From: Bacillota bacterium
GTDB taxonomy: Bacteria; Bacillota_I; Bacilli_A; RFN20; CAG-288
Direction of reading: 5' to 3'
DNA: 64,000 nucleotides
Assembly: GCA_023398335.1 (NCBI GenBank)
Contig: JAEWSJ010000009.1
Coordinates: 55,567-119,566, forward strand
This document shows, piece by piece, positions 6,503 to 63,787 of the stretch. Made by a program: the position numbers and the translations under genes. Below the pieces are notes generated by a model. The model made no database searches and was not told the DNA's origin. It was given only the letters and a program-made list of their open reading frames with translations. Positions within the stretch are counted from its first letter, which is position 1, and each line of letters opens with the position of its first letter.

Positions 6503-7480
6503 TTATTCCAATATTCTTCCGATTTTAACGAATTCTTCAGAACTCTTTCTTGGAAATTTTAAGGCGTCTTGGATATTAAAATAAGATAATTTATTATTCA
6601 CAATACCAACGCATGAAGAAGAAATACCTCGCTTAAGCAATTCAACGGCATATTCTCCTAAACGTGAAGCAAGGATTCTGTCTGCAGCGGTAGGTGTTCC
6701 ACCTCTTTGCATATGGCCAAGAACTTCAGCTTTAGTTTCAAAGCCACACTTATTTTCAATTTCGCGTGCAAATTCATGAACATCACATACTTTTTCAGAA
6801 ATGATAATCATCGCGTGTTTCTTTCCATGATCTCTTTGTTCTTTTAATATATTAATAACTTCATCTTTTGTCATAGGTAAATCATTTGTAATTGTTAATT
6901 CAGCACCGCATGCTAAACCAGCATAAGCGGCCAAATCACCACATCTATTTCCCATTACTTCAATAATTGAGCAACGTTGATGAGAAGAGGAGGTATCTCT
7001 AAGTCTATCGACACATTCAACAATTGTATTAAGTGCAGTATCAAAGCCGATAGTAACATCGGTTGAGGCAATATCGTTATCGATTGTGCCTGGAACACCA
7101 ATGCAATTAATACCGAGTTTGGAGAGAGCTTGTGCTCCCATATATGTACCATCGCCACCGATGCACACTAAAGCATCAATTCCAATTTCTTTGAGAATAT
7201 CAGCGGCCTTTTTTTGAACTTCAGGATCTTTAAATTCTGGTAAACGTGCAGTACCCAAAATGGTACCACCTCTATTGATAATATCCGAAACTGAATGTCT
7301 ATTCATTTTGACTATGTTCTTTTCCAATATACCTTTATATCCATCGTAAATAGCATATGCTTCTAGTCCATATACTAAGCATGTTCTAACAATTGCTCTA
7401 ACACATGCATTCATTCCTGGTGCATCTCCACCACTAGTTAATATTCCAACTTTTTTAACCATAATAAAATCTCCTATCAA
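6503..7480 (-). CDS. pfkA: ATP-dependent 6-phosphofructokinase
   Basis: GGDGS-like motifs (TSGGDAPGMN, GGDGTY). Confidence 0.95.
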   Translation of the reverse strand: MIGDFIMVKKVGILTSGGDAPGMNACVRAIVRTCLVYGLEAYAIYDGYKGILEKNIVKMNRHSVSDIINRGGTILGTARLPEFKDPEVQKKAADILKEIGIDALVCIGGDGTYMGAQALSKLGINCIGVPGTIDNDIASTDVTIGFDTALNTIVECVDRLRDTSSSHQRCSIIEVMGNRCGDLAAYAGLACGAELTITNDLPMTKDEVINILKEQRDHGKKHAMIIISEKVCDVHEFAREIENKCGFETKAEVLGHMQRGGTPTAADRILASRLGEYAVELLKRGISSSCVGIVNNKLSYFNIQDALKFPRKSSEEFVKIGRILE

Positions 7481-7631: not shown

Positions 7632-8309
7632 TTAATCTTTTTTTGATTTATGATTAAAGAAATAATTTTCCATTTCTTTTAATATTGAATTTTTGTTTGA
7701 CTTAAGTTTATTCTTTCTATCAAGCTTAAACTGTTCAAAAGAAATGATAATCTTGCTGTTCTTTGCAATTTTTGAAACTTTAGTCGCAAGAGAAGTAGAA
7801 TCGATGAAGTCGTATAACATCAAGCCATAAAAAACACCTAAAAAGAATTCGAGATAGACTTCATATTTAATAAAAAATGTTACCATAATTTCGTTATAGT
7901 GGTGAATGAAGAGATAATAGATAGCTCCACAGATTGCCCAAATTAAAGAAAACAAAGGACAAATTATCCCTTTGTAATTTCCTTTTCTATTGGAATAATC
8001 CCATAGCTTAATATTCATTCCTTTAATAAAAATCAATCCAGCAATTAACTCTATCAAAGTAACTCCTATACCAATTATACATATTACTAAAATGGATTTG
8101 ATATAGTAGTTATCAATTCCGTAATTCAATGAGGAAAACAAATATAAAACACATACTCCAAAACCGTATAACGGGATATATGGACCGTGTAAAAATCCTG
8201 GGTTAATCCATTTTTTGGCTGATACGAATCTTCTAAAAAGTACTTCAATTAGATAGCCAATTGATGAGCCAAAGAAGAATAGAAAGGCATATGTTAAGAA
8301 TGTGTCCAT
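7632..8309 (-). CDS. Polytopic integral membrane protein of unknown function
   Basis: 225 aa with about 5 TM helices and a Lys-rich C-terminal tail. Divergent from dnaB-like. Confidence 0.5.
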   Translation of the reverse strand: MDTFLTYAFLFFFGSSIGYLIEVLFRRFVSAKKWINPGFLHGPYIPLYGFGVCVLYLFSSLNYGIDNYYIKSILVICIIGIGVTLIELIAGLIFIKGMNIKLWDYSNRKGNYKGIICPLFSLIWAICGAIYYLFIHHYNEIMVTFFIKYEVYLEFFLGVFYGLMLYDFIDSTSLATKVSKIAKNSKIIISFEQFKLDRKNKLKSNKNSILKEMENYFFNHKSKKD

Positions 8310-8418: not shown

Positions 8419-9678
8419 ATGCTAATGTTTGAAGAAGACAGTATTTATGAAGTAAGAGCGGATTTTGATTTATCTTGCTATGATAGAGAATTTTTAGCCA
8501 GATGTTACTTACCTTTTTTAGGTGGGAATGCTTTTGCTTTATATGAATATATGCTTTCATGTGATAAAGGGCAATACTACTTTGTTGATGATCTATGTAA
8601 GAGAATCGGAATACTTTCTTCTTCATTGATTTCTGAGCGACAAAAATTAGAAGCTTGTGGTTTGTTATCAACTTATCGTAATGAGACAAAAGATAAAATA
8701 TCTTATATTTTTATCTTGTTTGCTCCTTTATACCCAAATAAATTCTTCAATAATATTCTTTTATCTAGTTTACTTATTTCAAAAATAGGAAAAAGAGAAT
8801 TTGATAAATTAATTAATAAGTATACATCTAATTCAAAAATGGATAGTGCATTTAAAAATGTAACTATGAGATTTAATGATGTTTATGATGTTGAACCGGA
8901 TATGAACTACTATGAGACAATGAATGGAGAATCACGTGTTTTATTTGACAAACATGAAAATGAAATAAAGAGTGATTTTTCTGAAAAGAAACTTGTAGAT
9001 GAATTATCTAATATTGATGTTGATGTTAATTCTATTTCCACATATTTACCTGATATTAAACAGGTTTCTGTACTTTATAATGTTAAAGAAAAAACTTGTG
9101 CTAATCTTATTAAGTCAAGTTTAAACACAAATAATGTTTTTAATTTTGAGGCGTTTAAAGAAAACGCGTCTTTAGCTACAAAATATGGAGTTAAAGATAT
9201 TGACAATTCATTCGTTGATATTGATGAAACTTTCAATATTGGAAATTCTATGCTTGCTAAAAAAATTAAATTGTTGGAAAGTATATCTCCGAAAGAATTA
9301 TTATCTCATTCTTTAAACGACGTAGTATTACCAAAATCATATCTAGATTTAATATATAATCTTCAGAATGACTATAAGATTAATAATGGTGTATTAAATG
9401 TTGCCATTGATTACACTTTACAAAAATGCAATTTTCAATTACCTGAGATGTATATACGTAAAGTCATAATTTCGTTAGTTAAAAACAACATTAATACTTC
9501 ATCTGATGCAATGACTTATTTGGTACAGCAATCAAATAAGGTGATTAATAAGAAGAAGAGAAGCAAGTTGAATAAAGTTGAAGCAATAGTAGAGAATAAA
9601 AACGAAGTAAAGAATGATAATAATGACGATGATTTTGATTTAGAATCAGTTTTAGGAGGAGTATTTAGTGGAAAATAA
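8419..9678 (+). CDS. dnaB: Replication initiation and membrane attachment protein, B. subtilis DnaB-type (DnaD-like domains)
   Basis: N-terminus aligns to Bsu DnaB: YLPFLGGNAFALYEYML versus YQPLIGPVAHSLYMTL; ERQKLEACGLLSTY...YIFILFAPLYPNKFF versus ERLKLEGIGLLRTY...LFIYELLPPLRPDEFF. Followed by dnaI as in Bsu. Confidence 0.7.
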   Translation: MLMFEEDSIYEVRADFDLSCYDREFLARCYLPFLGGNAFALYEYMLSCDKGQYYFVDDLCKRIGILSSSLISERQKLEACGLLSTYRNETKDKISYIFILFAPLYPNKFFNNILLSSLLISKIGKREFDKLINKYTSNSKMDSAFKNVTMRFNDVYDVEPDMNYYETMNGESRVLFDKHENEIKSDFSEKKLVDELSNIDVDVNSISTYLPDIKQVSVLYNVKEKTCANLIKSSLNTNNVFNFEAFKENASLATKYGVKDIDNSFVDIDETFNIGNSMLAKKIKLLESISPKELLSHSLNDVVLPKSYLDLIYNLQNDYKINNGVLNVAIDYTLQKCNFQLPEMYIRKVIISLVKNNINTSSDAMTYLVQQSNKVINKKKRSKLNKVEAIVENKNEVKNDNNDDDFDLESVLGGVFSGK

Positions 9679-10600
9679 TATATTGAAAAATGTTCTTACT
9701 AAAGAAGAAGTAGAGAATAAAGATGTTGAAATTGAATCTAGAATTAAGAACAACGAACGTCTACAAGAAATTCTTCTGAAATTTGATGTTAGTGATGATA
9801 TAGTTAAAAAATCTTACGCACCTATATTGCGTTATTTAGACGATCAAAAGCAGTGTAATAATTGTCTTGGCTATGATAAATGTACAAAATGTAATAAAAA
9901 GGGATATCGAATCGCATTAAAATACGATCCTTTTATTGGCTATATTGATGATGCATATATAAAATGCGATTATTATAAACAAATTTGCAAATTATATGAC
10001 CGATTTATCATTTCTGATATTGACGTTGTAAAATGCAAAGATACTTTTTCTAAAACTTACGAGTATTTATTTAAGACTAAATCTTCAGTTAGGAATAGTT
10101 TTATTTCTGTAGCAAAAAGCGTGATGAAAAAATCTGTAACAAAATACTCTCCGAAAGAAATGAACTGCGGAGCGTATATTTATTCTGATAATGATAATGG
10201 TAATTTCCTTCTTTCATTAATTGCTTTTACACACGCTAAAGCTCAAAGAGATATTGTTTATTTAGAAGCAAGTAGAACCTTGACTGATGCATCTTCTTTT
10301 AATAAGGAAATTAAAGAAGAAGCGGATTCCAAAATAGAAAGAGCGAAAAACGCACCTGTTCTTGTTATTTCAAATCTTGGATTTGAATATAAATCATCTT
10401 CCGCTCGAGATATTATTTTGACACCTTTATTATCTTCAAGAGCAAAAAAAGGATTGGTTACTTATATTTCATCTCGTGTATGCTTAAATGATTTAATTTA
10501 TTCCTATGCTAAAGATGCTGTTAGTAAAAAATTCTTAGAATCATCCTTCAATAAAATTGTTGAAGAATATCACATTGAAGATATCGAATTATTTAATTAA
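9668..10600 (+). CDS. dnaI: DnaI-like helicase loader with degenerate Walker A/B (predicted ATPase-dead)
   Basis: GTG start with a GGAGG RBS. N-terminal Cys cluster (CNNCLGYDKC..C) resembles the DnaI zinc domain. The P-loop position reads YIYSDNDNGNFLL versus Bsu YLYGKFGVGKTFLL. There is no GKT/GKS anywhere in the protein. Walker B DD is replaced by SN. Confidence 0.6.
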   Translation: MENNILKNVLTKEEVENKDVEIESRIKNNERLQEILLKFDVSDDIVKKSYAPILRYLDDQKQCNNCLGYDKCTKCNKKGYRIALKYDPFIGYIDDAYIKCDYYKQICKLYDRFIISDIDVVKCKDTFSKTYEYLFKTKSSVRNSFISVAKSVMKKSVTKYSPKEMNCGAYIYSDNDNGNFLLSLIAFTHAKAQRDIVYLEASRTLTDASSFNKEIKEEADSKIERAKNAPVLVISNLGFEYKSSSARDIILTPLLSSRAKKGLVTYISSRVCLNDLIYSYAKDAVSKKFLESSFNKIVEEYHIEDIELFN

Positions 10601-10659
10601 TTATTATTTCATATAAAAATTTTCCTTATATTTACTAAATGATGTGAGGAGATTTTTTT

Positions 10660-11823
10660 ATGTTAAAACAAAAAGAACAAAGCAATTGTGGCGAGGTAGC
10701 AGTAAGAAATATAATTCATTATTTTTATAAGACAAGAGATTCCTATTTTTATAGTCTCAAAAATGATTGCAGCAATTTTTATTTGATGAAGGATTCTTTA
10801 TATGAATATGGAATTATATCAAATGGATATTCATTTACATCTTTAAAATCTCTTTGTAAAGTAAAAACTCCGTTTATTTGTTTAATAAACAGAGATGGAG
10901 AGAAACACTTTATTATTGTGAGAAAGAAAGTTTCGAATTATTTCTTAGTAAACGATTTGAACTATGGTTGGCGATTAATTAGTCTTCATAAATTTAAAGA
11001 AATATCCGAGAACAAAATACTAGTATTTGAAAATTATGAGAAAAAAAAGATTAAGAAAATAAGTCTCATTAGTAATAAATATTTACTCGCGTTAAACTTT
11101 GTTATTTTAATGGAATCGCTTTGTTTATTTTATTCTTTTGCTATTATGAACGATTCAAAATATAGTTTAATTAATTCATTAAGTTTAATAGCTGTTTTTT
11201 TATTAGCGTTTATGCATAAATCACTGTTAATTAGCGTTTCAAAACAATTTGATAAAAGTGTATCCCTAAAGTATTTTCAAGCAGTAAATAGTACAAAAGA
11301 TTATGTATTACTAAATAATTTCAAAACAAAATTTATCACTGAAATAAACGGGAAAATAAGTTCAGTATACACTTTAATATTAGCTTTGTTGGTAGCCTTT
11401 TTTTCCAGTATAGAAATGCTAGCTTTTTTACTTGTATCGTTTATTATATTTATCATATATGAATATTTATTTAGTAAATATTTGAATAAGATGGAATATA
11501 AAATTTATGAAAAAGAACAGATGTTTTTAAACAGCAATCAAATAGATGAAAATTCCTTTAATTCTTCATCGCAAATTGCTTCGAAATATGGGTTGTTAAT
11601 TGAATTAAAGAAAATACTCGTATTAATTTCTATCTTTGTATGTAGCATTTTCTATTCATATCAATCATTGAATATTTCTTATTGTATATTTTTAACTTTG
11701 TTCATTAATTATGTTGTTTCAACTTGCTATTCAAATTTTGCTTATTTCAGTGTTAATAGCAGCTATTTTAACGAAATTCTTAAGTTGGATGGTATAATTT
11801 ATGATATTATTCAAAAAGGGTGA
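10660..11823 (+). CDS. Peptidase C39-like domain fused to a 6-TM domain (ABC-exporter-like, but no NBD)
   Basis: N-terminus has Q-x5-C (QKEQSNCGEVAV), HFIIV and a downstream D/N, all typical of C39. About 6 TM helices follow. The protein ends at 387 aa with no ATPase domain, and no ABC NBD gene is adjacent. Confidence 0.5.
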   Translation: MLKQKEQSNCGEVAVRNIIHYFYKTRDSYFYSLKNDCSNFYLMKDSLYEYGIISNGYSFTSLKSLCKVKTPFICLINRDGEKHFIIVRKKVSNYFLVNDLNYGWRLISLHKFKEISENKILVFENYEKKKIKKISLISNKYLLALNFVILMESLCLFYSFAIMNDSKYSLINSLSLIAVFLLAFMHKSLLISVSKQFDKSVSLKYFQAVNSTKDYVLLNNFKTKFITEINGKISSVYTLILALLVAFFSSIEMLAFLLVSFIIFIIYEYLFSKYLNKMEYKIYEKEQMFLNSNQIDENSFNSSSQIASKYGLLIELKKILVLISIFVCSIFYSYQSLNISYCIFLTLFINYVVSTCYSNFAYFSVNSSYFNEILKLDGIIYDIIQKG

Positions 11824-11887: not shown

Positions 11888-12361
11888 ATGAATAATTGTG
11901 AATTTTATTTTTCTAATCAAACGACAGATGAAAATGAAGACATCGAATTATTATTTAATTCAGTTTTGCTTCATTGTTTAGATTTTATGGGACTTAAAGA
12001 CAAAATGTTAGCACTTAGTACTACGTTGGTTAATACTGAGCAAATACATAAGATTAATAAGGAATATAGAAATATAGATCGCCCAACCGATGTAATATCG
12101 TTTGCTTATGATGATGATAAAACTGAACTTAATGATGAAATAGATGATTTAGGGGAAATTGTCATTTGTTTAGATGTCGCTAGAATTCAAGCAAAAGAGT
12201 TTAATCATAAAGTCGAAAGAGAACTAGCTTTTTTATTTATTCATGGTTTTCTTCATTTGCTTGGTTACGATCATATGAAAGGTAAAAAAGAAGAGGAAGA
12301 AATGTTTTCTCTTCAAAACGATATATTAAATTCGTTTAAGTACGACTATAAGGAGATTTAA
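11888..12361 (+). CDS. ybeY: rRNA maturation endoribonuclease YbeY
   Basis: HGFLHLLGYDH zinc-binding motif. Confidence 0.9.
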   Translation: MNNCEFYFSNQTTDENEDIELLFNSVLLHCLDFMGLKDKMLALSTTLVNTEQIHKINKEYRNIDRPTDVISFAYDDDKTELNDEIDDLGEIVICLDVARIQAKEFNHKVERELAFLFIHGFLHLLGYDHMKGKKEEEEMFSLQNDILNSFKYDYKEI

Positions 12362-12363
12362 TA

Positions 12364-12786
12364 ATGATTGATATTAATGATAAGAAGGTAATTGATGAAT
12401 TGTTTGAGGATGTAAAACACGCCCAAACATTATCGTATTCGCCATATTCTAAATTTAGAGTAGGAGCTGTTATATATACAAAAGATGGAAAGAAAATTTT
12501 TGGTGCTAATATAGAAAATTCGTCTTATGGACTCTCAATGTGTGCTGAAAGAACTGCAATGTTTAAAGCTCATCTGGAAGGATATAGCAAAGAAGATATT
12601 GAAGTTTTGGCTTTGGTTGGTGATTCTTCTACATATGCTTATCCATGTGGAGCGTGTCGTCAAGTCATGTCCGAGCTATTAAGTCTAAATTGTCCAGTTA
12701 TTGTTTTTAGTAAAACTGGAGCACATATTAATTCTTCAGTCGAAGAATTATTGCCATATACATTTTCAAAGGAGAGTTTAAATTAA
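12364..12786 (+). CDS. cdd: Cytidine deaminase
   Basis: CAERTA and PCGACRQ zinc-binding motifs. Confidence 0.9.
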   Translation: MIDINDKKVIDELFEDVKHAQTLSYSPYSKFRVGAVIYTKDGKKIFGANIENSSYGLSMCAERTAMFKAHLEGYSKEDIEVLALVGDSSTYAYPCGACRQVMSELLSLNCPVIVFSKTGAHINSSVEELLPYTFSKESLN

Positions 12787-13664
12787 TGAAAGTAGGATTT
12801 TGTTGCCTTTATGGGCTTGCTAACGCTGGCAAATCAACGTTGCTCAATTCGATACTAGGAATGAAGATTGAAGCAACTTCATCAAAACCGCAGACTACGC
12901 GTGAAAATTTTCAAGGAATATACAATGATGACGATTCTCAAATCGTATTTATCGATACTCCTGGACTTCATAAGCCACATAAGAAATTGGGAAGTTTACT
13001 GATTAAAGATGCTGAAAGTGCTATTCAAAGCGTTGATGTAATCATTTATGTTGTAGATTCTTCTGAAGGTGTTAATTATAAGATACCAGAAAATCTTGCC
13101 CAATCGACAATACCTGTAATTGTAGCTTTCAATAAGATTGATTTAATCAATCTTGATGATGGTCAAAAAAGGCTTGAAGAATATAAATCTATTTTACCTA
13201 ATGCTGAGTTTATTGAAATTTCCGCAATAAAAAAATTCGGAATAGATGAGTTAATTGCCATGGTCAAAAACCATATGAATGAAGGAACACCATATTTCCC
13301 AAAAGATATGATCACTGATCATCCAACCGAATTTATTTATGCTGAAATGATTCGTGAAAAATGTATGAGACTCCTAGATGAAGAAGTTCCACACGCAATT
13401 CATGTTGAAATTACTAACGTTGAAAGTGGTGAAAATGAACAAGGAATTGTAATTTCCGCTAATATAATTGTTGAAAAAGAGTCTGAAAAAGCTATTGTAA
13501 TCGGAAAAAGCGGCAAAATGATTTCGAAAATTCGTCATTTAGCTGAACACTCAATTTCATTATTTGTTATGGATGATGTTGCTCTTGAATTATATGTTAA
13601 GGTCGTAAACGATTGGCGTAATGATGTTAGATATTTACGCAAATATGGATACGAAGGAAATTAA
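12786..13664 (+). CDS. era: GTPase Era
   Basis: G1 motif GLANAGKST, DTPG, NKID and a KH domain. Start overlaps the cdd stop (taATG). Confidence 0.9.
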   Translation: MKVGFCCLYGLANAGKSTLLNSILGMKIEATSSKPQTTRENFQGIYNDDDSQIVFIDTPGLHKPHKKLGSLLIKDAESAIQSVDVIIYVVDSSEGVNYKIPENLAQSTIPVIVAFNKIDLINLDDGQKRLEEYKSILPNAEFIEISAIKKFGIDELIAMVKNHMNEGTPYFPKDMITDHPTEFIYAEMIREKCMRLLDEEVPHAIHVEITNVESGENEQGIVISANIIVEKESEKAIVIGKSGKMISKIRHLAEHSISLFVMDDVALELYVKVVNDWRNDVRYLRKYGYEGN

Positions 13665-14404
13665 TGCCTAGTAAGATTATAACTCTAGAAGGATATATTC
13701 TTTCTAGTTCAAAATATCGTGAAAATGATTCAATAATTGTCTTACTTACTTCTTATGGAAAAAAGAATGTATTAGTAAGAGGTGGAGAGAAGCCAGACTC
13801 AAAGAATCATCAAGCAATCATTGTTTTTAATAAAGTTAAGCTTGATGTAAATTCAACTAATGAAGATTATTTATCAGCTACTTCAGTTGAAACGGAAGAA
13901 AACAATTCTGTTTTATATGAAAACTTGATCTACTCATCAATGTTGCAATTCGCTTCTGAAATTTTGTTACGAAACTTTCAGGATGATGATAGTATGCCTT
14001 ATTCATATTTTGAGCAGATGATTCATTTATCTTTGGATAATTTCGATTCGCTAACTTTGATGTTTATTTTTTTATGTCAAGCAACTAGCAGAATGGGCTT
14101 TGAACCAAATATTAATGAATGTGTTAATTGTGGTTCAAAGAAAAATTTAGTTTCGTTTGACTTAAATGAAGGTGGATTTATTTGTTCATCTTGTGCTGAA
14201 GAGATAGGATTAGAGAAATCCAATGTAAATTATATGAAAGTATTTAGATATGGCTTTATGGTTCCGGCTAATTTAATGGGCAAAAGTGTTTTGCCAAAAG
14301 ATGATACAAGAAAAGCTTTAACAGAATTAGCTATGTTCATCGAAGATCAATTCGGTGGTAGCAAGATAAAAACTCTAAAATTGTATTTAGAAATGATTAA
14401 TTAA
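13664..14404 (+). CDS. recO: DNA repair protein RecO
   Basis: Position after era as in Bsu. C-terminal zinc finger CxxC...CxxC. Confidence 0.8.
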   Translation: MPSKIITLEGYILSSSKYRENDSIIVLLTSYGKKNVLVRGGEKPDSKNHQAIIVFNKVKLDVNSTNEDYLSATSVETEENNSVLYENLIYSSMLQFASEILLRNFQDDDSMPYSYFEQMIHLSLDNFDSLTLMFIFLCQATSRMGFEPNINECVNCGSKKNLVSFDLNEGGFICSSCAEEIGLEKSNVNYMKVFRYGFMVPANLMGKSVLPKDDTRKALTELAMFIEDQFGGSKIKTLKLYLEMIN

Positions 14405-15892: not shown

Positions 15893-17818
15893 ATGATGCT
15901 AGATCAAAGTTTGATTGACAGTATTAGATCAAAAGCTGATATTGTTCAAGTTATTTCCTCCTATTTAGATGTTGAAAAAAAAGGCAGTAATTACCTAGCT
16001 ATTTGTCCTTTTCATCATGACACATCTCCATCGTTAACTATATCACCTACTAAACAGATTTTTACGTGCTTTGTTTGTCATACAACAGGTAATGCTTTTT
16101 CTTTTGTCATGAAATATGAACATATTGGCTTTATTGATGCGGTTAAAAAAGTTTGTTCAATTTGTGGAATAGATGTCCCTGAACTTAATAACTATAAAGT
16201 CATTAAGAGAATAAGAGAAAATGAAGAAGAACATAAAGCTTTAGAACAATTGTCAGATTACTATGCTTACATGCTTGATACTCAAGATGGAATTGAAGCT
16301 AAAAATTATTTAATTTCCCGTCAATTGCAAAATGATGTTATTAAACACTTTAAAATAGGCTATGCACCTCTAAATAATGAAGAATCCGTTAATATGTTGA
16401 GGAATAAATTGAATATTCCGCTTGAAGTATTGGATAGAGCAGGAATTACTTCCTCTTCAACCTCAACATTTAAGGATCGCTATAGAGATCGTATTATTTT
16501 TACTTTGGAAGATTTGCATGGTGATGTGGTTGGTTTCTCTGGTAGAAAATATAAAGACAATGAAGCTAACGAAGCAAAATATATTAATTCACCTGAAACC
16601 GTTCTATTTAAGAAGAGTCAATTATTGTATAATCTAAAAAACTCGATGGAATCATGTAAAAAAGATGGCTATATATATTTACTTGAAGGTTTCATGGATG
16701 TCATTGCTTTGTATCGAGCTGAAATTACATCCGCTGTAGGTCTAATGGGCACTTCTTTATCAAAGGAACATGTTGCTCTATTCAAGAAATTAAATGTTGA
16801 AATTAGATTATGTCTTGATTCTGATGGTCCAGGTCAAGCAGCTACAGAAAAATGTATTGCTGCATTATATGAAGAAAGAGTTAATTTTAAAGTAATAAAA
16901 CCTTTATATAATGGAAAAGATCCGGATGAATTGCTAGATTCAGAGGGTAAAGAAGCTCTTGTTGCTGCTATGAATGAGATTGAAGAACCGATTATTCATT
17001 CATTAAACTATAATATAAAAGCTAAATTACTAAATACATATGAAGATAAGGAAAAGTTTTTAGTTGCTAATAAAAATTATTTCTACAATATCAATACTTT
17101 AGCATTAAATGAGGTACTTGATACATTATCATTAGCTTTGAATGTTTCAGTTGACTCCATAAAAAATGTATATCGTTCTTTACGAAATAAATCTGACATT
17201 AAATCCGTACAATATGGAGACAATAAACCAGATAGAAGATATGAGTATACTTATATTGATTCATCCGTTGATATATATAAAGCACTTACAGATTACATTT
17301 TAAACATTACTGATAATGTTAGATTAAAATCAATTAATTCAAAACCAATTGTAATAAATGAATCGAGAATTATAGCTCGTATGGTCATGTCGAGAAAAAT
17401 GTGCAATGACTTTTTAAAGACTGAATCATTTGTTATTAGTCAATATAATTTGCTAGTTAGATATTTTAACGATTACTACTTGCGTAATAGTGTAGAATGT
17501 TTATGTGTGGAAAAATTGGGAGATATTGAAGACTCAGTTGAAAACACTTATGGAGAATTGATTGAGACTAATCAAAAATTTTCTAAAGACAAAGATGAGA
17601 TTTTAGGCATTATTTTACGGTTAAAGGTTTGTCATATCCCTTGTAAAACTAATATGTCTGATAGTTCTATCAGCAATCTCATTGACACTCATAAAGATTT
17701 ATGTCTAAAATTTGATATTTCAAACAAAAGTTTGGATGATAAATCTAAGGAAGAATTGATTTCTAAGTTGCAAAAAAATTACTCAAAAAAATTAGAAGGG
17801 AAGAAGAATAATGGCTAA
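15893..17818 (+). CDS. dnaG: DNA primase
   Basis: Zinc finger [10 protein letters not shown]...CFVCH, TOPRIM domain (EGFMD). Confidence 0.9.
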
Positions 17819-19013
17819 AGTAGAAAAAATTGAGATTAAAGTTGAGACAGAATGGAAAGATTTGTTATTAAAAAAAGGGACAAAAAAGGGATTTTTATCT
17901 CAAGATGATATTTACGCCATTATGGAACCTTTCGATATATCAGATGACCAATTGGACGAATTAATTAATTATGTTAAAGAATCTGGAATTGAAATTAAAA
18001 ATGATGTTGAAGAGGATGAACCTATTATTGATGATAGTTTAACACCTGAAGACTTACTTAAAAATGATGATGATATACTTGAAGATGATAATTTTGAAAT
18101 TGAAGTTGAAGAAGAGTCTATTCCTGAAATTCATGATTTAGAATTTTCAATTGATAATGTTGATATTAAGAATAATGACCCAGTTAAACAATATTTACGT
18201 GAAATTGGTAAATATCGTGTCTTAAAAGGAAAAGATGAAGAGATTGAAATTGCTCGTCGAATTGCTGAGGGTGATGAATCAGCTAAAGAAGAACTTACAA
18301 ATTGCAATTTAAAATTAGTTATTTCTATCGCTAAACACTATGTCAATAGAGGAATGCAATTCTTGGATTTAATTCAAGAAGGTAATTTAGGATTGATGAA
18401 AGCTGTCGAAAAGTTCGATTATACAAAAGGCTATAAATTTTCAACATATGCTACATGGTGGATTAGACAAGCCATCACTAGAGCTTTAGCTGATCAAGCT
18501 CGTACAATACGTATTCCTGTCCATATGGTTGAAACAATAAATAAAATTACTCGTGCTTCACGTAAATTAACACAAAAGTTAAATCGTGATCCTACACCTG
18601 AAGAAATTTCTAAAGAACTTGATGGCGCATACTCTGCTGAGAGAATTAGAGAAATTCAACTGATTGCCATGGATCCTTTATCATTAGAGAAACCTGTTGG
18701 TGAAGAAGAAGATTCACATGTTGGTGATTTCATCGAAGATAAAGATAATGAATCACCATTAAAATATGCTAATTCTTCTTTATTAAAAGATAAATTAAAT
18801 GATGTTTTAGGTGAATTAACAGATCGTGAAGAAAGAGTCATTCGTTTACGTTATGGCCTTGATGATGGAAGAAACCACACTCTTGAAGAAGTTGGCAAAG
18901 AATTTGGTGTTACTCGTGAACGTATTCGTCAAATTGAAGCCAAAGCAATTAAGAAATTACGTCATCCAACACGTTCAAAACAATTGAGAGATTATTTAGA
19001 CGATATAAATTAA
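17811..19013 (+). CDS. sigA: RNA polymerase principal sigma factor
   Basis: Regions 1.1 to 4.2 present. [14 protein letters not shown] (2.4) and [21 protein letters not shown] (4.2). The dnaG-sigA order matches Bsu. Confidence 0.9.
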
Positions 19014-19092: not shown

Positions 19093-20121
19093 ATGAGTAA
19101 AGACATTAACAAATCCTTAATTAATGATTATGTTAGTAGTATTGATTCTTCAAAAATTGCCAAGTCTAAAATGATAAGCGATTTCATTGATGAGCAAAAT
19201 TTGAATGAAGATGAGATTGATTATCTTTTTCGTGCTTTAAAAGATAAAAACATTCGACTTTCTGAGATTGATTTTAATAGCCCTAGTACTTCAAGTAAAA
19301 AAATATATTCTACGTCTGACTCGTTAAATATGTATTTGCAAGAGATTGGTCGCTATCCTTTATTAACATTTGAAGATGAAAAAAAATTATCGAAACTAAT
19401 CCATGAAGGCGATACCGAAGCTTATGATGAATTGGTCAATAGCAACCTAAGACTTGTTGCATCAATAGCTAAAGAATACAAAGGCAAGAGCACTTTATCA
19501 TATCAAGATTTAATTCAAGAGGGTAATTTAGGGCTTTTACGTGCTGCTCAAAAATACGATTATACAAGAGGCTTTAAGTTTTCAACTTACGCCGTATGCT
19601 GGATAAGACAATCTATTTCACGTGCAATAGCCTCAAAAGGGCACGCTATTGCCTTGCCAGTATATATTCAAGAATCATTAAATAAAATTAAAGGTATATC
19701 TAGTAAATTAGTTTTAAGATACGATAGAGATCCTACCCCAAAAGAAATAGCTGATGAGTCAAGAGATGAATTTACTGAAGACAAAGTTAGAAAACTTTTA
19801 TCATATGATAATTCGGTTGTTTCTTTGGACAAACCAGTTAATGAAAATGATTCAGGAGTTTCATTAGCTAATTTTTTATCAAATGATGATAATAGCCTAT
19901 TAATTGATAATCAAATAGAAGATATTAGATATGCCATTAATAAACTATCCGAACGAGAACGCAGCTTAATTATTAAACGTTATGGTTTATATGATAATAG
20001 TCCTCACACTTTGGAAACTTTAGGAGAAGAAGAAGGCGTAACACGTGAACGTGCACGTCAGCTTGTAAATCGCGCTCTAAAAAAGATGGCAGAATATTTA
20101 AAAGATGGCAGTAATAAGTAA
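19093..20121 (+). CDS. Sigma-70 family sigma factor, SigA paralog (group 2-like)
   Basis: 342 aa with regions 1.2 to 4.2: YLQEIGRYPLLTFEDE, TYAVCWIRQSISRA, GVTRERARQLVNRALKKM. Has its own terminator/promoter context after sigA. Confidence 0.8.
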   Translation: MSKDINKSLINDYVSSIDSSKIAKSKMISDFIDEQNLNEDEIDYLFRALKDKNIRLSEIDFNSPSTSSKKIYSTSDSLNMYLQEIGRYPLLTFEDEKKLSKLIHEGDTEAYDELVNSNLRLVASIAKEYKGKSTLSYQDLIQEGNLGLLRAAQKYDYTRGFKFSTYAVCWIRQSISRAIASKGHAIALPVYIQESLNKIKGISSKLVLRYDRDPTPKEIADESRDEFTEDKVRKLLSYDNSVVSLDKPVNENDSGVSLANFLSNDDNSLLIDNQIEDIRYAINKLSERERSLIIKRYGLYDNSPHTLETLGEEEGVTRERARQLVNRALKKMAEYLKDGSNK

Positions 20122-59774: not shown

Positions 59775-61877
59775 TTAACGTGTCTTTACAATAATAATTT
59801 CGTATGGAATTGTAAATGGATTACCGAATTCATCTTCCTGTAGGTAATCAACATTCCAGTCTTTGGATAACTCAATCCATTTTTGATCATCTCTAATGTT
59901 AGTAACATCAAAGACACCGTCGAGGTAATAATCTAAAACTTCAATATCAATTTTCTTTACGCCTGAGTTAGAAAATACACATCCCTTAACTGAACGAATA
60001 GATTTAGGTAAAACAAATTTTTCATTTAAACTTGTGCATCCTTCGAAACAGAATGAGCCAATATTATTTACACCTAGGTATGATACCTTTGTAGTATCTT
60101 TAGTATCAATAATAGTATCGAATATTACTGATTCTAATCCGGTACATCCTTGGAATGCACGAGAACCGATAGATTTGATATTAATTGTGAAATCAACATC
60201 TTTAATTCCCTTACAACCATAAAACGCTTGAATTCCGATTTCAGTAATTGATAAAGAAAAAGTTACTTCAACTAAACTAGTCATGTTGTAAAACATCTTG
60301 CTAGTTACGACAGTCGGACCATTCTTAAAATTATAAGATTTTATTTCTGGAACATTATCCCCAAATATATCAGTTAAATCATCACCATAAGGCAAAGCTA
60401 ATTTAACCGCATTTGAACATAATTTAAAGGCATTTTTAGATATTTCAGTATTATCACCTAATTCAATCTCAGTAATATGTGAGCATCCACTAAAAGCGTT
60501 TTCACCAATAAAGACTGAAGTAGGAAGGTTAACGTAAGAAATGTTACATCCAGCAAAGGCTTCAGAACCAACATACTTAACAGTATTCGGTATACTTATG
60601 GTATAACTATAACCACTAAAGCATTTATCTCCAACCCCATATACAGAATATGGAATTTGATAATCAGCAGGTATTTTACCTTTAAACCCAGCTAGGAATT
60701 TACCTAGAATTACTTTGCCATCTGCTAAGGAAGAATACCATGGGCAAGTTAAACTTGATAAGCTTAATTTAGAGATATATTGAAGAGAGGAATAATTCTT
60801 TAACTCATTTAATTTTGTTAAATCTGCTAAATTATCACTGCCAATGTATTCAACTTCATTAATATCTAAAGAAGTAACATTAATAGCAGCGCTAATAGCT
60901 GAATCAATTACAACTTTATCTTTGTTTCCAAATACTTTAAGTTTTGTTAATTTATCTAAACCATCAGTATCACTAAATAATTCGAATAACAATTTATTAC
61001 CGTCGTAGGCAAAAGTCTCAACATTTTTGGTTTCTTTAAATACATCTACTCCATATTCAATGTTAGTGCCATTAAATACACAAGATTTAAGAGCAGAACA
61101 ATTTGCGAAAGCTCTATTGCCTATTCTATTAAGGGTAGAAGGAATATCTACATTTGTAATTGATGTATTTTCAAATGCGGAAGCACCAATTCCTTCTAAT
61201 GTTGAAGGAAAAGTAATCGATTTTAGATTAGTATCTTTAAACGCATTTGCAGCAATATACTTAATATTGGAAGGAACAACATATGAAGATACATCACCAA
61301 TATAATCATATAACGTATCTCCGAAAATTATTGCACCAGTTTTATTAGTAATGTAGGAAGAATAAAATGGTGTTGAATCAAATGCTCCATCTCCAACGTA
61401 TTTAAGATTTGTTAAACTATCAAGATTAATTTCATTTAATGAAGTGTCTCCACTAAAAGCATAGGCTCCAATAGAATTGATATATTTTCCTAAATTTACT
61501 GAAGTTATATCTTTATTATTTTTCATGAATTCATCGCCTAAAGCGACAATCTTATAGCCACCATCAGTCTCAGCAACATCAGTTCGAATAGCATCTTCAA
61601 TTGTAACTTTGTTATTTTCAACAAATCCTTTAATATCACCTAAAGAAGAAGTGTAAATAAACGAATCTAAGTTAATCGTATCATCATAAGACTTTGGATC
61701 TTCATCACCTAGACTGGCTAGTTTTTCATCTTTTCCCGCATTTTGTGAGAATTTAAATCTACTTAAAAACTTAGTTTTTTGCAACGGATTAACAAAAACT
61801 GACTCTTCTTCACATGAAGTTATCGATAATATTGATGCGGCGAGAAGAAGCAATCCGATATACTTGTATTTTTTCAT
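59775..61877 (-). CDS. Surface lipoprotein with BspA-type leucine-rich repeats
   Basis: Start at MKKYKYIGLLLLAASILSITSC with a lipobox, preceded by a GGAGGAGG RBS. Multiple repeats of the form ...IGxxAFxxCxxLxxVxxP... Confidence 0.65.
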   Translation of the reverse strand: MKKYKYIGLLLLAASILSITSCEEESVFVNPLQKTKFLSRFKFSQNAGKDEKLASLGDEDPKSYDDTINLDSFIYTSSLGDIKGFVENNKVTIEDAIRTDVAETDGGYKIVALGDEFMKNNKDITSVNLGKYINSIGAYAFSGDTSLNEINLDSLTNLKYVGDGAFDSTPFYSSYITNKTGAIIFGDTLYDYIGDVSSYVVPSNIKYIAANAFKDTNLKSITFPSTLEGIGASAFENTSITNVDIPSTLNRIGNRAFANCSALKSCVFNGTNIEYGVDVFKETKNVETFAYDGNKLLFELFSDTDGLDKLTKLKVFGNKDKVVIDSAISAAINVTSLDINEVEYIGSDNLADLTKLNELKNYSSLQYISKLSLSSLTCPWYSSLADGKVILGKFLAGFKGKIPADYQIPYSVYGVGDKCFSGYSYTISIPNTVKYVGSEAFAGCNISYVNLPTSVFIGENAFSGCSHITEIELGDNTEISKNAFKLCSNAVKLALPYGDDLTDIFGDNVPEIKSYNFKNGPTVVTSKMFYNMTSLVEVTFSLSITEIGIQAFYGCKGIKDVDFTINIKSIGSRAFQGCTGLESVIFDTIIDTKDTTKVSYLGVNNIGSFCFEGCTSLNEKFVLPKSIRSVKGCVFSNSGVKKIDIEVLDYYLDGVFDVTNIRDDQKWIELSKDWNVDYLQEDEFGNPFTIPYEIIIVKTR

Positions 61878-61894
61878 CTTAATCCTCCTCCTCA

Positions 61895-63787
61895 TTAAAT
61901 AATCTTTACATCAGTATTTAATGTATATACTTCAAGTGGTTTCTCTTCATTAAACGAAAGGTATATTTTACTGTCATCTTTAACATCTAAATTTGAAATG
62001 TCAATATCGCAAGTTTTAGAGTTAATCAAGCACTTTAAATATTTTTTATCTCCATAATTTAATATTTCAACTTTTTCGTAGTCGATATTATTAGCACTTT
62101 GCTCAAGAGAAGCTTTTGGTGTAAAGCGAATACGATATTCGCATTGTAAAACTCTTCTACCTTCGACATTTGAAAAACGACGGATAAATTCATCATTTAG
62201 TCTATATTTTGCGTTAGCAACAACTCCACAGAATCTGATTACACGTTTGCCATTTTCATCTTTTTCTCTGGCTTTTTCAAAATGACCAACAGATTCAACA
62301 ATATGGGATACTGGCTTAATATTTGAATCATCATCGATGATGATGTCTTCATAAGAGACATCAAAATTGAAACTATTCCCAACCTTTACTTCCTTATTGC
62401 TAGTAGCGAATAAATATTCGTTATTTATTTCATCAAACAAAGTAACTAAATACTTATTTTCTTCCATAAATTCACAGTTAAATACTGGTAAAGAGAATGT
62501 TTTTCCTTCGTGAATAGAAATATTTGGGATTTTTACAATTCTCTTTTTATTTGGAAGTGTTTTAAAAGCATCGAATATATTAACTTCTTTGTTAAATAAA
62601 GTAATGGTCTTTTCATCTTTTTGCATTGAAATAACCGAATATGTTGGATAATATGGCATGATTGATTGCTCATTATCATTGTCGAATAATTGTAAGAATT
62701 CATTTTTAAATAACGCGTGTAATTTATCGCCAATTTCATACTTTACATTAGCACCAACTTTAATAATAATAGGAGATTTTGAAATAGACTCATCAGTTAA
62801 AACATTATTTCCTAAATCACAATATAAGAGAGTTTCATTACCTAATTTTTCAATAGATGAAACAACAACATCTAATGTAGCTTTAGTTTTCTTCTCCGAA
62901 ATAACAATGTGATCTGGTCTAATACCTAATGTAATAGTTTTATCCCCACCAAAATAATTGACATCACATTTGACAAAATATTTATTCTCAACACTCATGG
63001 TTTGACTATCTTCAAAAGCAATATTAATTAAATCTTTTTGTCTTTTTAAATTTACATTGAAGAAATTCATTTGTGGAGTACCAATAAATCCTGCAACAAA
63101 CTTATTTATCGGGTGATTATATAAATTAATAGGAGTATCTATTTGTTGAACATAACCTAGTTTCATAACAACAATACGTGTGCCCATGGTCATAGCTTCA
63201 ACCTGATCGTGAGTAACATAAATAAATGTTGTTGCTAACTTCTTATGAAGTCTAGAAATTTCCGCTCTCATTTGAGCTCTTAATTTTGCATCTAGATTAG
63301 ATAAAGGTTCATCAAGTAAAAATACTTTAGGATTACGGACGATAGCACGTCCTAAAGAAACTCTTTGTCTTTGACCACCGGACATTTCCTTTGGCTTTTT
63401 TTGTAAATAATCTTCAATTCCAAGTATTCTTGCAGCTTCAAGAACTCGTTTATTGATTTCGTCTTTTGGCATATGTTGATTTTTCAATGAAAAAGCCATG
63501 TTTTCATAAACACTCATATGAGGATATAATGCGTAGTTTTGGAAAACCATTGCAATATCCCTTTCTTTTGGTTGAACATCATTGACAAGATTATCACCTA
63601 TGTATAAATCACCAGTAGTTATTTCTTCAAGGCCAGCAATCATACGTAAAGTGGTTGATTTACCACAACCAGATGGGCCAACAAAAACAATGAATTCTTT
63701 ATCTTTAATATTGATATTAAAATCATTGACCGCCTTTGTTCCATTTGGATAAACCTTGAATACGTGATTTAATACTACATTAGCCAT
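61895..63787 (-). CDS. Sugar-ABC-type ATPase (MalK/MsmK-like) with an extra C-terminal extension of about 260 aa
   Basis: Walker A GPSGCGKST, signature LSGGQRQRV, Walker B LLDEPLSNLD. The MalK-like regulatory domain extends to about residue 370. Residues 370-630 have no recognisable motif. Confidence 0.8.
   Translation of the reverse strand: MANVVLNHVFKVYPNGTKAVNDFNINIKDKEFIVFVGPSGCGKSTTLRMIAGLEEITTGDLYIGDNLVNDVQPKERDIAMVFQNYALYPHMSVYENMAFSLKNQHMPKDEINKRVLEAARILGIEDYLQKKPKEMSGGQRQRVSLGRAIVRNPKVFLLDEPLSNLDAKLRAQMRAEISRLHKKLATTFIYVTHDQVEAMTMGTRIVVMKLGYVQQIDTPINLYNHPINKFVAGFIGTPQMNFFNVNLKRQKDLINIAFEDSQTMSVENKYFVKCDVNYFGGDKTITLGIRPDHIVISEKKTKATLDVVVSSIEKLGNETLLYCDLGNNVLTDESISKSPIIIKVGANVKYEIGDKLHALFKNEFLQLFDNDNEQSIMPYYPTYSVISMQKDEKTITLFNKEVNIFDAFKTLPNKKRIVKIPNISIHEGKTFSLPVFNCEFMEENKYLVTLFDEINNEYLFATSNKEVKVGNSFNFDVSYEDIIIDDDSNIKPVSHIVESVGHFEKAREKDENGKRVIRFCGVVANAKYRLNDEFIRRFSNVEGRRVLQCEYRIRFTPKASLEQSANNIDYEKVEILNYGDKKYLKCLINSKTCDIDISNLDVKDDSKIYLSFNEEKPLEVYTLNTDVKII

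Follow-up and report, generated by a model that had tools for sequence, protein, structure and literature searches.

Peptidase-containing ABC transporters (PCATs) are described as three-domain machines, built of a C39 peptidase domain, a transmembrane domain (TMD) and a nucleotide-binding domain (NBD), in which cleavage of a leader is coupled to ATP-driven export. In PCAT1 of Clostridium thermocellum the leader is cleaved ahead of ATP binding and hydrolysis (PMC11491471), and in both PCAT1 and NukT the activity of the C39 domain is strongly raised by its association with the TMD, the excised domain being poorly active (PMC6363468). C39 ABC proteins are also present in Mollicutes; JCVI-syn3A retains one of them, 0401, whose function was only speculated on, and no double-glycine (GG) peptide was found in JCVI-syn3A or in other mycoplasmas (PMC6609329, citing Dirix 2004). 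The Mycoplasma genitalium protein MG_390 is encoded by a gene co-transcribed with MG_389 and belonging to the recombination regulon induced by sigma-20; deleting that gene cuts recombination-based transformation tenfold (PMC4446450). Here we analyse a stretch of 64,000 nucleotides from a Bacillota bacterium of order RFN20, family CAG-288 (contig JAEWSJ010000009.1), referred to as the window, in which an open reading frame (ORF) at 10660-11823 (+) of 1164 nt, with an ATG start and a TGA stop, encodes a 387-aa protein that carries a C39 peptidase domain and a PCAT-like TMD and ends before any NBD. The reading that we favour, and hold to be somewhat probable, is that of an ATP-independent, membrane-tethered leader-type endopeptidase, an ATPase-less descendant of PCATs with its substrate encoded elsewhere.

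The protein is a member of peptidase family C39 by every feature that could be examined. PF03412 Peptidase_C39 matches residues 3-125 (E 7e-8; 32.8 bits, gathering cut-off 22), the motifs Q4-x5-C10 (QKEQSNC), H83 (KHFIIV) and D99 (VNDLNYG) are all present, and the papain-like fold of the domain is superposable on solved C39 peptidase domains, so that the signature read from the letters alone in an earlier note on this DNA (Q-x5-C, HFIIV and a downstream D) is borne out. The same Pfam model was matched by all 40 family members scanned. A non-catalytic C39-like domain (CLD) of the HlyB type, which by definition has lost the catalytic Cys and is not a protease (PMC6363468), was considered and rejected, as the domain of the window keeps its Cys (C10, 142/143) and its His (143/143) across the aligned family; moreover, HlyB retains its NBD, whereas the window protein does not. 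FapD and FilB are likewise C39 domains without a fused ATPase and give weak NCBIfam matches (E 5e-5 to 1.6e-4), yet the window protein scores only 21-23 bits on their models against cut-offs of 330-475 bits, and these proteins, encoded in amyloid or pilus operons, lack an ABC-type six-helix membrane domain.

Neither a PF00005 match in the protein nor a Walker A or signature motif close by was found. Past the sixth transmembrane (TM) helix only 23 residues follow, and this tail (residues 365-387) aligns, in a global hhalign comparison, with the linker that joins TM6 to the NBD in PCATs. Only 65 bp separate its stop codon from ybeY, which leaves no space for an NBD hidden by a frameshift, a possibility that the earlier note had raised and that is rejected here. 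When three PCAT NBDs were used as tblastn queries against the 64-kb window, the sole match was a MalK/TOBE-type importer ATPase at 61895-63787 (-), 52 kb away. Seventeen distinct family members were examined in their genomic context (the window, L002-L017, L021-L024, the P0037 locus and L018-L020; 5-17 kb of sequence around the relatives), and none of these loci has an NBD gene adjacent to the family gene. Similarly, a double-glycine regular expression returned no credible small ORF with a GG leader in the 64-kb window or at the other NBD-less loci; the same expression recovers two cargo peptides beside each of the full-length PCATs taken as controls, P0159 and P0174 (L026-L028). The lack of a fused or adjacent NBD and of a nearby GG peptide gene, both remarked on in the earlier note, thus held on closer inspection.

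Hydropathy and an AlphaFold2 model (pLDDT 89, pTM 0.78; 40 aligned sequences as input) agree with the earlier description of six TM helices followed by the end of the protein, and place them at residues ~139-161, 166-209, 212-248, 251-291, 297-333 and 339-364. Lys and Arg number 19 in the predicted cytoplasmic segments vs 1 in the predicted outer loops; therefore, the C39 domain and both termini are predicted to be cytoplasmic, as in PCATs. That PCATs are the right point of reference, as had been assumed earlier, is supported by three comparisons; 1- the family profile is collinear with residues 16-354 of PCAT1, covering the peptidase and TM1-TM4 (E 4e-13), 2- the top Foldseek matches are PCAT1 entries (E 7e-14 to 1e-11, TM-score 0.5-0.57 on the query), with HlyB, McjD, MsbA and TM287/288 behind them, and 3- hhalign of the TMD alone against an alignment of ten full-length PCATs gives 85% probability (E 7.6e-7). 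Two gaps open in the family in this last alignment, one of ~17 columns at the PCAT segment of intracellular loop 1 (ICL1) that carries ‘G-x-i-i-s-R’ and another of ~18-20 columns at the ‘t-i-K’ segment of ICL2. By comparison with established ABC exporter structures, we take the gapped segments to be the pair of coupling helices by which the NBD is contacted. TM2 is joined to TM3 in the AlphaFold2 model by a mere 2-residue turn, and TM4 to TM5 by one of 5 residues. Judging from the alignment and the model, the lineage appears to have shed the docking sites along with the motor, and this speaks against an NBD that acts in trans.

None of the 40 family members matched PF00664 ABC_membrane or ABC_tran. 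The TMD is in fact the fastest-evolving part of the protein, with a mean pairwise identity of 16% among 143 members vs 26% for the C39 domain. Its only near-invariant residue, E286 (137/143), lies well outside the hydrophobic core; E152 of TM1 is Glu in only 41/143 members, E252 and E268 are not conserved, and the 143-member alignment holds no conserved intramembrane acidic residue.

The window protein belongs to a conserved and apparently unnamed family of ~400-aa proteins from uncultured low-GC gut Bacilli of RFN20-type lineages. A word-indexed homologue search with the single protein returned only a 99% identical copy (L001), from a Logan assembly of an independent sample and with the gene order of the window. 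When 1.84 billion cluster representatives were searched exhaustively with HMMER, 150 matches were obtained at E < 1e-3 and 51 at E < 1e-10. The family counts at least 150 sequence clusters, nearly all of 370-430 aa and aligned end to end with the query, and no NBD was found in their full-length members. Comparison of orthologs thus yields a whole conserved NBD-less family, of which 143 full-length members (364-475 aa, median 399) were aligned. Searching genome contigs with a subfamily alignment (A3) recovered 10 loci in metagenome-assembled genomes (MAGs), the single-protein query none; the named carriers are MAGs labelled uncultured Bacilli, Firmicutes, ‘Erysipelotrichaceae’ and ‘Bacillales bacterium UBA7642’, and UBA7642 is placed by GTDB in order RFN20, family CAG-288 (bioRxiv 10.1101/2021.06.18.448887; PMC8035907). 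One 90%-identity cluster holds 1,957 member sequences, which means that one carrier or more must be frequent among the samples sequenced. The L012/L014 pair, the sole one with an unsaturated and adequate dS (0.9), gives a dN/dS of 0.10; weaker pairs give 0.15 (98% identical, few changes) and 0.04 (saturated dS). We found no dedicated Pfam or NCBIfam model for this NBD-less C39-TMD family, which is unreported in the open-access literature as far as the search tools cover it.

The best NCBIfam match of the window protein is NF045998 (Mbov_0121 family peptidase domain-containing ABC transporter; E 1.5e-10, positions 1-239 of the 673 of the model), with 40 bits against a cut-off of 500 bits; on TIGR03796 it scores 17.8 vs 853. 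NF045998 is also the best match of four other subfamily representatives and is matched by 33 of the 40 members, all far below 500 bits. A full-length C39-ABC_membrane-ABC_tran protein of 678 aa from a Spiroplasma endosymbiont (P0176) scores best on the same model, at 329 bits, and its locus (L025) reads hrcA-grpE-dnaK-dnaJ-...-mreB-rpsU-[PCAT]-[126-aa membrane protein]-ybeY-cdd-era-recO-glyS-dnaG-rpoD. The NBD-less P0162 occupies the same slot, in the order rpsU-[P0162]-ybeY::cdd-era-recO-glyS-dnaG-rpoD. By profile and by position, the family thus seems nearest to the orphan PCATs of Mollicutes. The profile also recovered the full-length PCATs P0159 and P0174, whose surroundings are bacteriocin-type clusters of the usual kind, GG peptides included. 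Scanning metagenomes with a bona fide Mbov_0121 member, P0143, gave NBD-level matches only and no second Mollicutes locus. MG_390 presumably adjoins ybeY and era in M. genitalium, and MG_390 and JCVI-syn3A 0401 probably fall in NF045998, judging by the annotations in the papers. The Spiroplasma protein and the family share their locus, and for the mycoplasma C39 ABC proteins, too, no GG cargo is known (PMC6609329); nonetheless, the Mollicutes proteins are ~670 aa long, with a complete NBD and matches to PF00664 and PF00005, none of which the window protein has. Compared with PCATs at large (PCAT1, ComA, LahT, NukT; TIGR01193), the window protein has no NBD, no ICL1 and no ICL2, its TMD is too divergent for PF00664, and its gene stands in a housekeeping string rather than in a bacteriocin or quorum-sensing cluster, without an adjacent GG cargo or accessory gene. 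It falls outside the PCAT families, failing on NBD, coupling loops, curated scores and linked cargo alike.

Two small proteins beside full-length PCATs were observed. At 9030-9410 of the Spiroplasma locus L025, a 126-aa single-pass membrane protein overlaps the PCAT stop and precedes ybeY, and a similar 137-aa single-pass protein (L026, 9064-9477) follows PCAT P0159 and precedes the GG peptides. Both may be accessory proteins, and the window has no counterpart of them.

The genomic position of the family gene is a further constant. ybeY lies directly downstream in 16 of the 17 loci and is followed by era, recO, glyS and dnaG, ybeY often being fused to cdd, and in four relatives whose coordinates were compared the stop of the family gene overlaps the ybeY start by 11-41 nt. 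This position is kept although ThrS and GlyS are 60-70% identical to those of the window and the C39-TMD proteins only 22-29%. The neighbours named in the earlier note, a dnaI-like gene and ybeY, were identified correctly (PDB 2qgz, E 2.6e-8; Pfam ybeY, E 4e-43); upstream, dnaB-dnaI is found in the window and most relatives and rpsU in L023. In Bacillus subtilis the order is rpsU ... yqfC-yqfD-phoH-yqfF-ybeY-dgkA-cdd-era-recO ... glyQS ... dnaG-sigA. Given that order, the dnaB-dnaI, rpsU and yqfC-yqfD contexts met in the family would be versions of one ancestral Bacilli neighbourhood. The conserved family, its placement at ybeY-era-recO, the deletion of both coupling loops and the kinship with Mollicutes PCATs are what the present analysis adds to the earlier note.

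Under the reading that we favour, the TMD, probably a homodimer as in other half-size ABC exporters, would tether the peptidase to the membrane on its cytoplasmic side and would offer it the docking surface or cavity without which PCAT peptidase domains are not fully active. The enzyme would then cut an N-terminal leader after a Gly-Gly-type motif of one or more substrates encoded elsewhere, without ATP, and if the product moves across the membrane or into it, ATP hydrolysis by this protein would not be the driving force. Perhaps the protein does more than cut, and is a secondary-active processing exporter or importer that cleaves a leader and translocates the peptide by alternating access powered by the proton-motive force; the analogy would be with SbmA and with the engineered NBD-less MsbA-MD (PMC4979069), and we consider it unlikely. 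Both the SbmA/BacA-type transporters (SbmA-like peptide transporters, SLiPT) and MsbA-MD are without a peptidase domain, and the sequence affinity of our family is to PCATs. In SbmA, protons are coupled through conserved glutamates. No acidic residue embedded in the membrane is conserved in the family, with E152 and the variable E252 and E268 as described above and E286 on the cytoplasmic extension of TM4, outside the bilayer; the rapid divergence of the TMD and the lack of a linked cargo gene speak against this idea as well, and the window protein is not an SbmA-type (SLiPT) transporter. The Cys/His site could also act on a target that is not a GG leader, either a housekeeping protein of ribosome maturation, replication restart or recombination, or a substrate of acyl or amide transfer. 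The embedding of the gene among housekeeping genes and the overlap of its stop with the ybeY start in the compared relatives suit such a role, as do the lack of GG peptides for the Mollicutes PCATs, the lipoyl-peptide transamidation speculated for JCVI-syn3A 0401 (PMC6609329), and the place of MG_390 in the sigma-20 recombination regulon, with tenfold fewer transformants by homologous recombination upon its deletion (PMC4446450); we regard it as distinctly improbable.

A split ABC transporter, in which the protein would be the C39-TMD subunit of a complex whose ATPase comes from a separate, unlinked gene, may be proposed since only 64 kb of the genome were covered and systems of other ABC classes commonly have their NBD on a polypeptide of its own. 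However, deletion of both coupling-helix loops relative to PCATs, with the short turns seen in the model, the absence of an adjacent NBD gene at the 17 distinct loci and the importer type of the only ABC ATPase in the window make this very improbable. We give next to no credence to a decaying remnant of a bacteriocin exporter, whether a truncated gene drifting to loss or an assembly or frameshift artefact. It is true that the protein stops exactly at the TMD-NBD junction when set against every characterised PCAT, and that the two available strains (10660-11823 in the window and 3254-4417 in L001) differ by 6 single-nucleotide polymorphisms (SNPs), 5 nonsynonymous and 1 synonymous, counts that are too small to interpret and by which constraint is not shown. 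Yet the same architecture recurs in at least 150 clusters with C10 and H83 kept in 142/143 and 143/143 members, dN/dS is ~0.1 in the one informative pair, the position is fixed across lineages with ThrS and GlyS at 60-70% identity, a near-identical copy exists in an independent sample, and the 65 bp before ybeY cannot hide an NBD. The decayed exporter suggested in the earlier note is therefore rejected, the family being under purifying selection. Its other suggestion, a stand-alone leader-peptide protease or maturation factor, is the best remaining reading, although proteolysis of a GG leader is a function that we infer solely from the conserved catalytic residues.

This last point weighs against the favoured reading, and so do the strain counts just given and several others. 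The TMD falls below every Pfam ABC_membrane threshold, and the structural match to PCAT1 is no more than moderate (TM-score 0.5-0.57). On the NBD-less profile, some PCATs from outside Mollicutes reach 109 and 77 bits vs 63 for the Spiroplasma PCAT. The preference for NF045998 could come in part from shared AT-rich composition, so that descent from Mollicutes PCATs rests mainly on one positional match (L025). The P0156 subfamily (L018-L020) comes after yqfC-yqfD, and the gene that follows it is not ybeY. The operon context, with a replication loader, rRNA maturation and recombination, offers no obvious peptide substrate, and an unlinked cargo gene, accessory protein or NBD may lie beyond the 64 kb and the 5-17 kb of sequence that were read.

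Coordinates of the gene, its parts and its neighbours are collected in Table 1.

Table 1. The C39-TMD gene and surrounding genes, in positions of the 64-kb window (conservation counted over the 143 aligned family members).
Feature	Position	Strand	Remark
Shine-Dalgarno GAGGAG	10646-10651	+	8 nt 5′ of the ATG; direct sequence reading
Whole gene: C39 peptidase and 6-TM ABC-exporter-type membrane domain, NBD-less	10660-11823	+	stop codon counted in
Cytoplasmic C39 (double-glycine type) cysteine peptidase domain, aa 1-125	10660-11034	+	
Q4 codon CAA, oxyanion-hole Gln of Q-x5-C	10669-10671	+	conserved in 138/143
C10 codon TGT, catalytic cysteine	10687-10689	+	conserved in 142/143, the other one having a gap
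H83 codon CAC, catalytic histidine	10906-10908	+	conserved in 143/143
D99 codon GAT, third catalytic residue	10954-10956	+	conserved in 137/143
Lys-rich cytoplasmic linker, aa 126-138 (YEKKKIKKISLIS)	11035-11073	+	
Six-helix membrane domain, aa 139-364; putative ABC type-IV (type I exporter) fold, intracellular loops shortened	11074-11751	+	
E286 codon GAA, cytoplasmic extension of TM4	11515-11517	+	conserved in 137/143
Cytoplasmic C-terminal tail, aa 365-387 (…SSYFNEILKLDGIIYDIIQKG)	11752-11820	+	ends where the PCAT NBD starts
DnaB-type replication initiation/membrane attachment protein	8419-9678	+	Pfam DnaB_2; syntenic in relatives
DnaI-like helicase loader, degenerate Walker A and B	9668-10600	+	immediate upstream gene
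ybeY	11888-12361	+	Pfam E 4e-43; downstream gene
cdd	12364-12786	+	Pfam and synteny
era	12786-13664	+	Pfam and synteny
recO	13664-14404	+	Pfam and synteny

Within the family, a large subfamily (P0015-P0035; columns ~400-461 of alignment A1) has a conserved C-terminal extension with the motif N-x-LS-x-P-[LF]-x-x-F-L-L-K...L-G-Y-[TN]-[NK]...G-G...G-L-S-G-Q, in which the Gly-Gly is often present; its coding sequence overlaps the ybeY start, and the window protein, whose tail is encoded at 11752-11820, is without it. This Gly-Gly might be a site of self-cleavage, in cis or in trans. As for the two strains, the replacements between the window and L001 (K128E, I137V, F180L, K285R and I319T) all lie in the linker or the TMD, and in ybeY, cdd, era, recO and glyS taken together 6/6 SNPs are synonymous.

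The upstream gene product is a true homologue of DnaI (B. subtilis DnaI 4m4w, E 8e-7, besides the 2qgz match) in which the Walker A region reads GAYIYSDNDNGNF, without GK[ST], and Walker B reads VLVISNLGFE and not ..DD.G.E; the same loss of AAA+ motifs is seen in five relatives (L002 6995-7951, L004 7008-7964, L007 6982-7947, L021 6000-6941 and L024 5998-6945). Degenerate DnaI motifs next to an NBD-less PCAT derivative would mean loss of ATPase function from two adjoining genes in this clade. ybeY is kept apart from cdd in the window, L021/L022, L024 and Spiroplasma, and the two form a fused YbeY::cytidine deaminase ORF of 267-292 aa in many relatives (L002 9217-10086, L004 9238-10098, L007 9208-10086, L023 8248-9114). 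Downstream of dnaG, two sigma-70 genes stand in tandem, the first (17811-19013, +) for a 400-aa RpoD with regions 1.1-4 and the second (19093-20121, +) for a 342-aa paralogue with regions 1.2, 2, 3 and 4; L024 has an additional Sigma70_r3 gene ahead of rpoD. Between pyk and dnaB, the window and L001 carry pfkA (6503-7480, -) and a gene for a CmpB-family membrane protein (7632-8309, -; PF06541, ‘putative ABC-transporter type IV’), an interval that holds pfkA alone in L021 and L024 and neither gene in L002-L017. A functional pairing of the C39-TMD protein with the CmpB-family protein was rejected, the CmpB gene being confined to the window lineage.

The MalK-type ATPase at 61895-63787 (-) has ABC_tran, OB_MalK and TOBE_2 domains and ~300 extra C-terminal residues without a Pfam match; it is followed by a gene (59775-61895, -) for a 706-aa BspA-type leucine-rich-repeat protein, whose called start, ATG AGG AGG AGG, resembles a ribosome-binding site for a later start. 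A clade of the related RFN20 genus UBA7642 was reported to read AGG as Met. AGG is rare in the window (19 of ~19,700 codons in 50 ORFs) and absent from the C39-TMD gene, and at seven testable AGG sites (rsmH, era, dnaG, dnaI) the relatives have mostly Arg or Lys, are mixed at two poorly conserved sites and never have Met, so AGG reads as Arg here; recoding that would alter the translation of the gene was accordingly rejected. A scan for promoters and terminators told nothing in such AT-rich DNA (29 promoter-like sites vs 31.6 expected), and a defence system was rejected, as PADLOC gave no match.

Finally, a bolder interpretation, which we put forward tentatively and think rather unlikely, is that of a natural ‘motor deletion’ within the orphan PCAT lineage (the MG_390/0401 class, which even minimal mycoplasma genomes retain), serving ATP-independent maturation of a non-bacteriocin substrate or being the first natural proton-driven, SbmA-like processing transporter. 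A clade of gut Bacilli would have kept the peptidase and a trimmed TMD under purifying selection, co-transcribed with ybeY-era, with a substrate that might have to do with ribosome maturation, replication restart or recombination. The family is abundant in gut metagenomes, and since a family of this size keeps peptidase and TMD without the ATPase or its docking loops, the peptidase-TMD pair is selectable on its own. The Mollicutes class puzzles annotators, with no double-glycine substrate in those genomes and one member nevertheless kept in JCVI-syn3A. Finding a Spiroplasma PCAT of the Mollicutes type in the very slot of the NBD-less gene gives a handle on this orphan class, and suggests that the job of the lineage may not need ATP.

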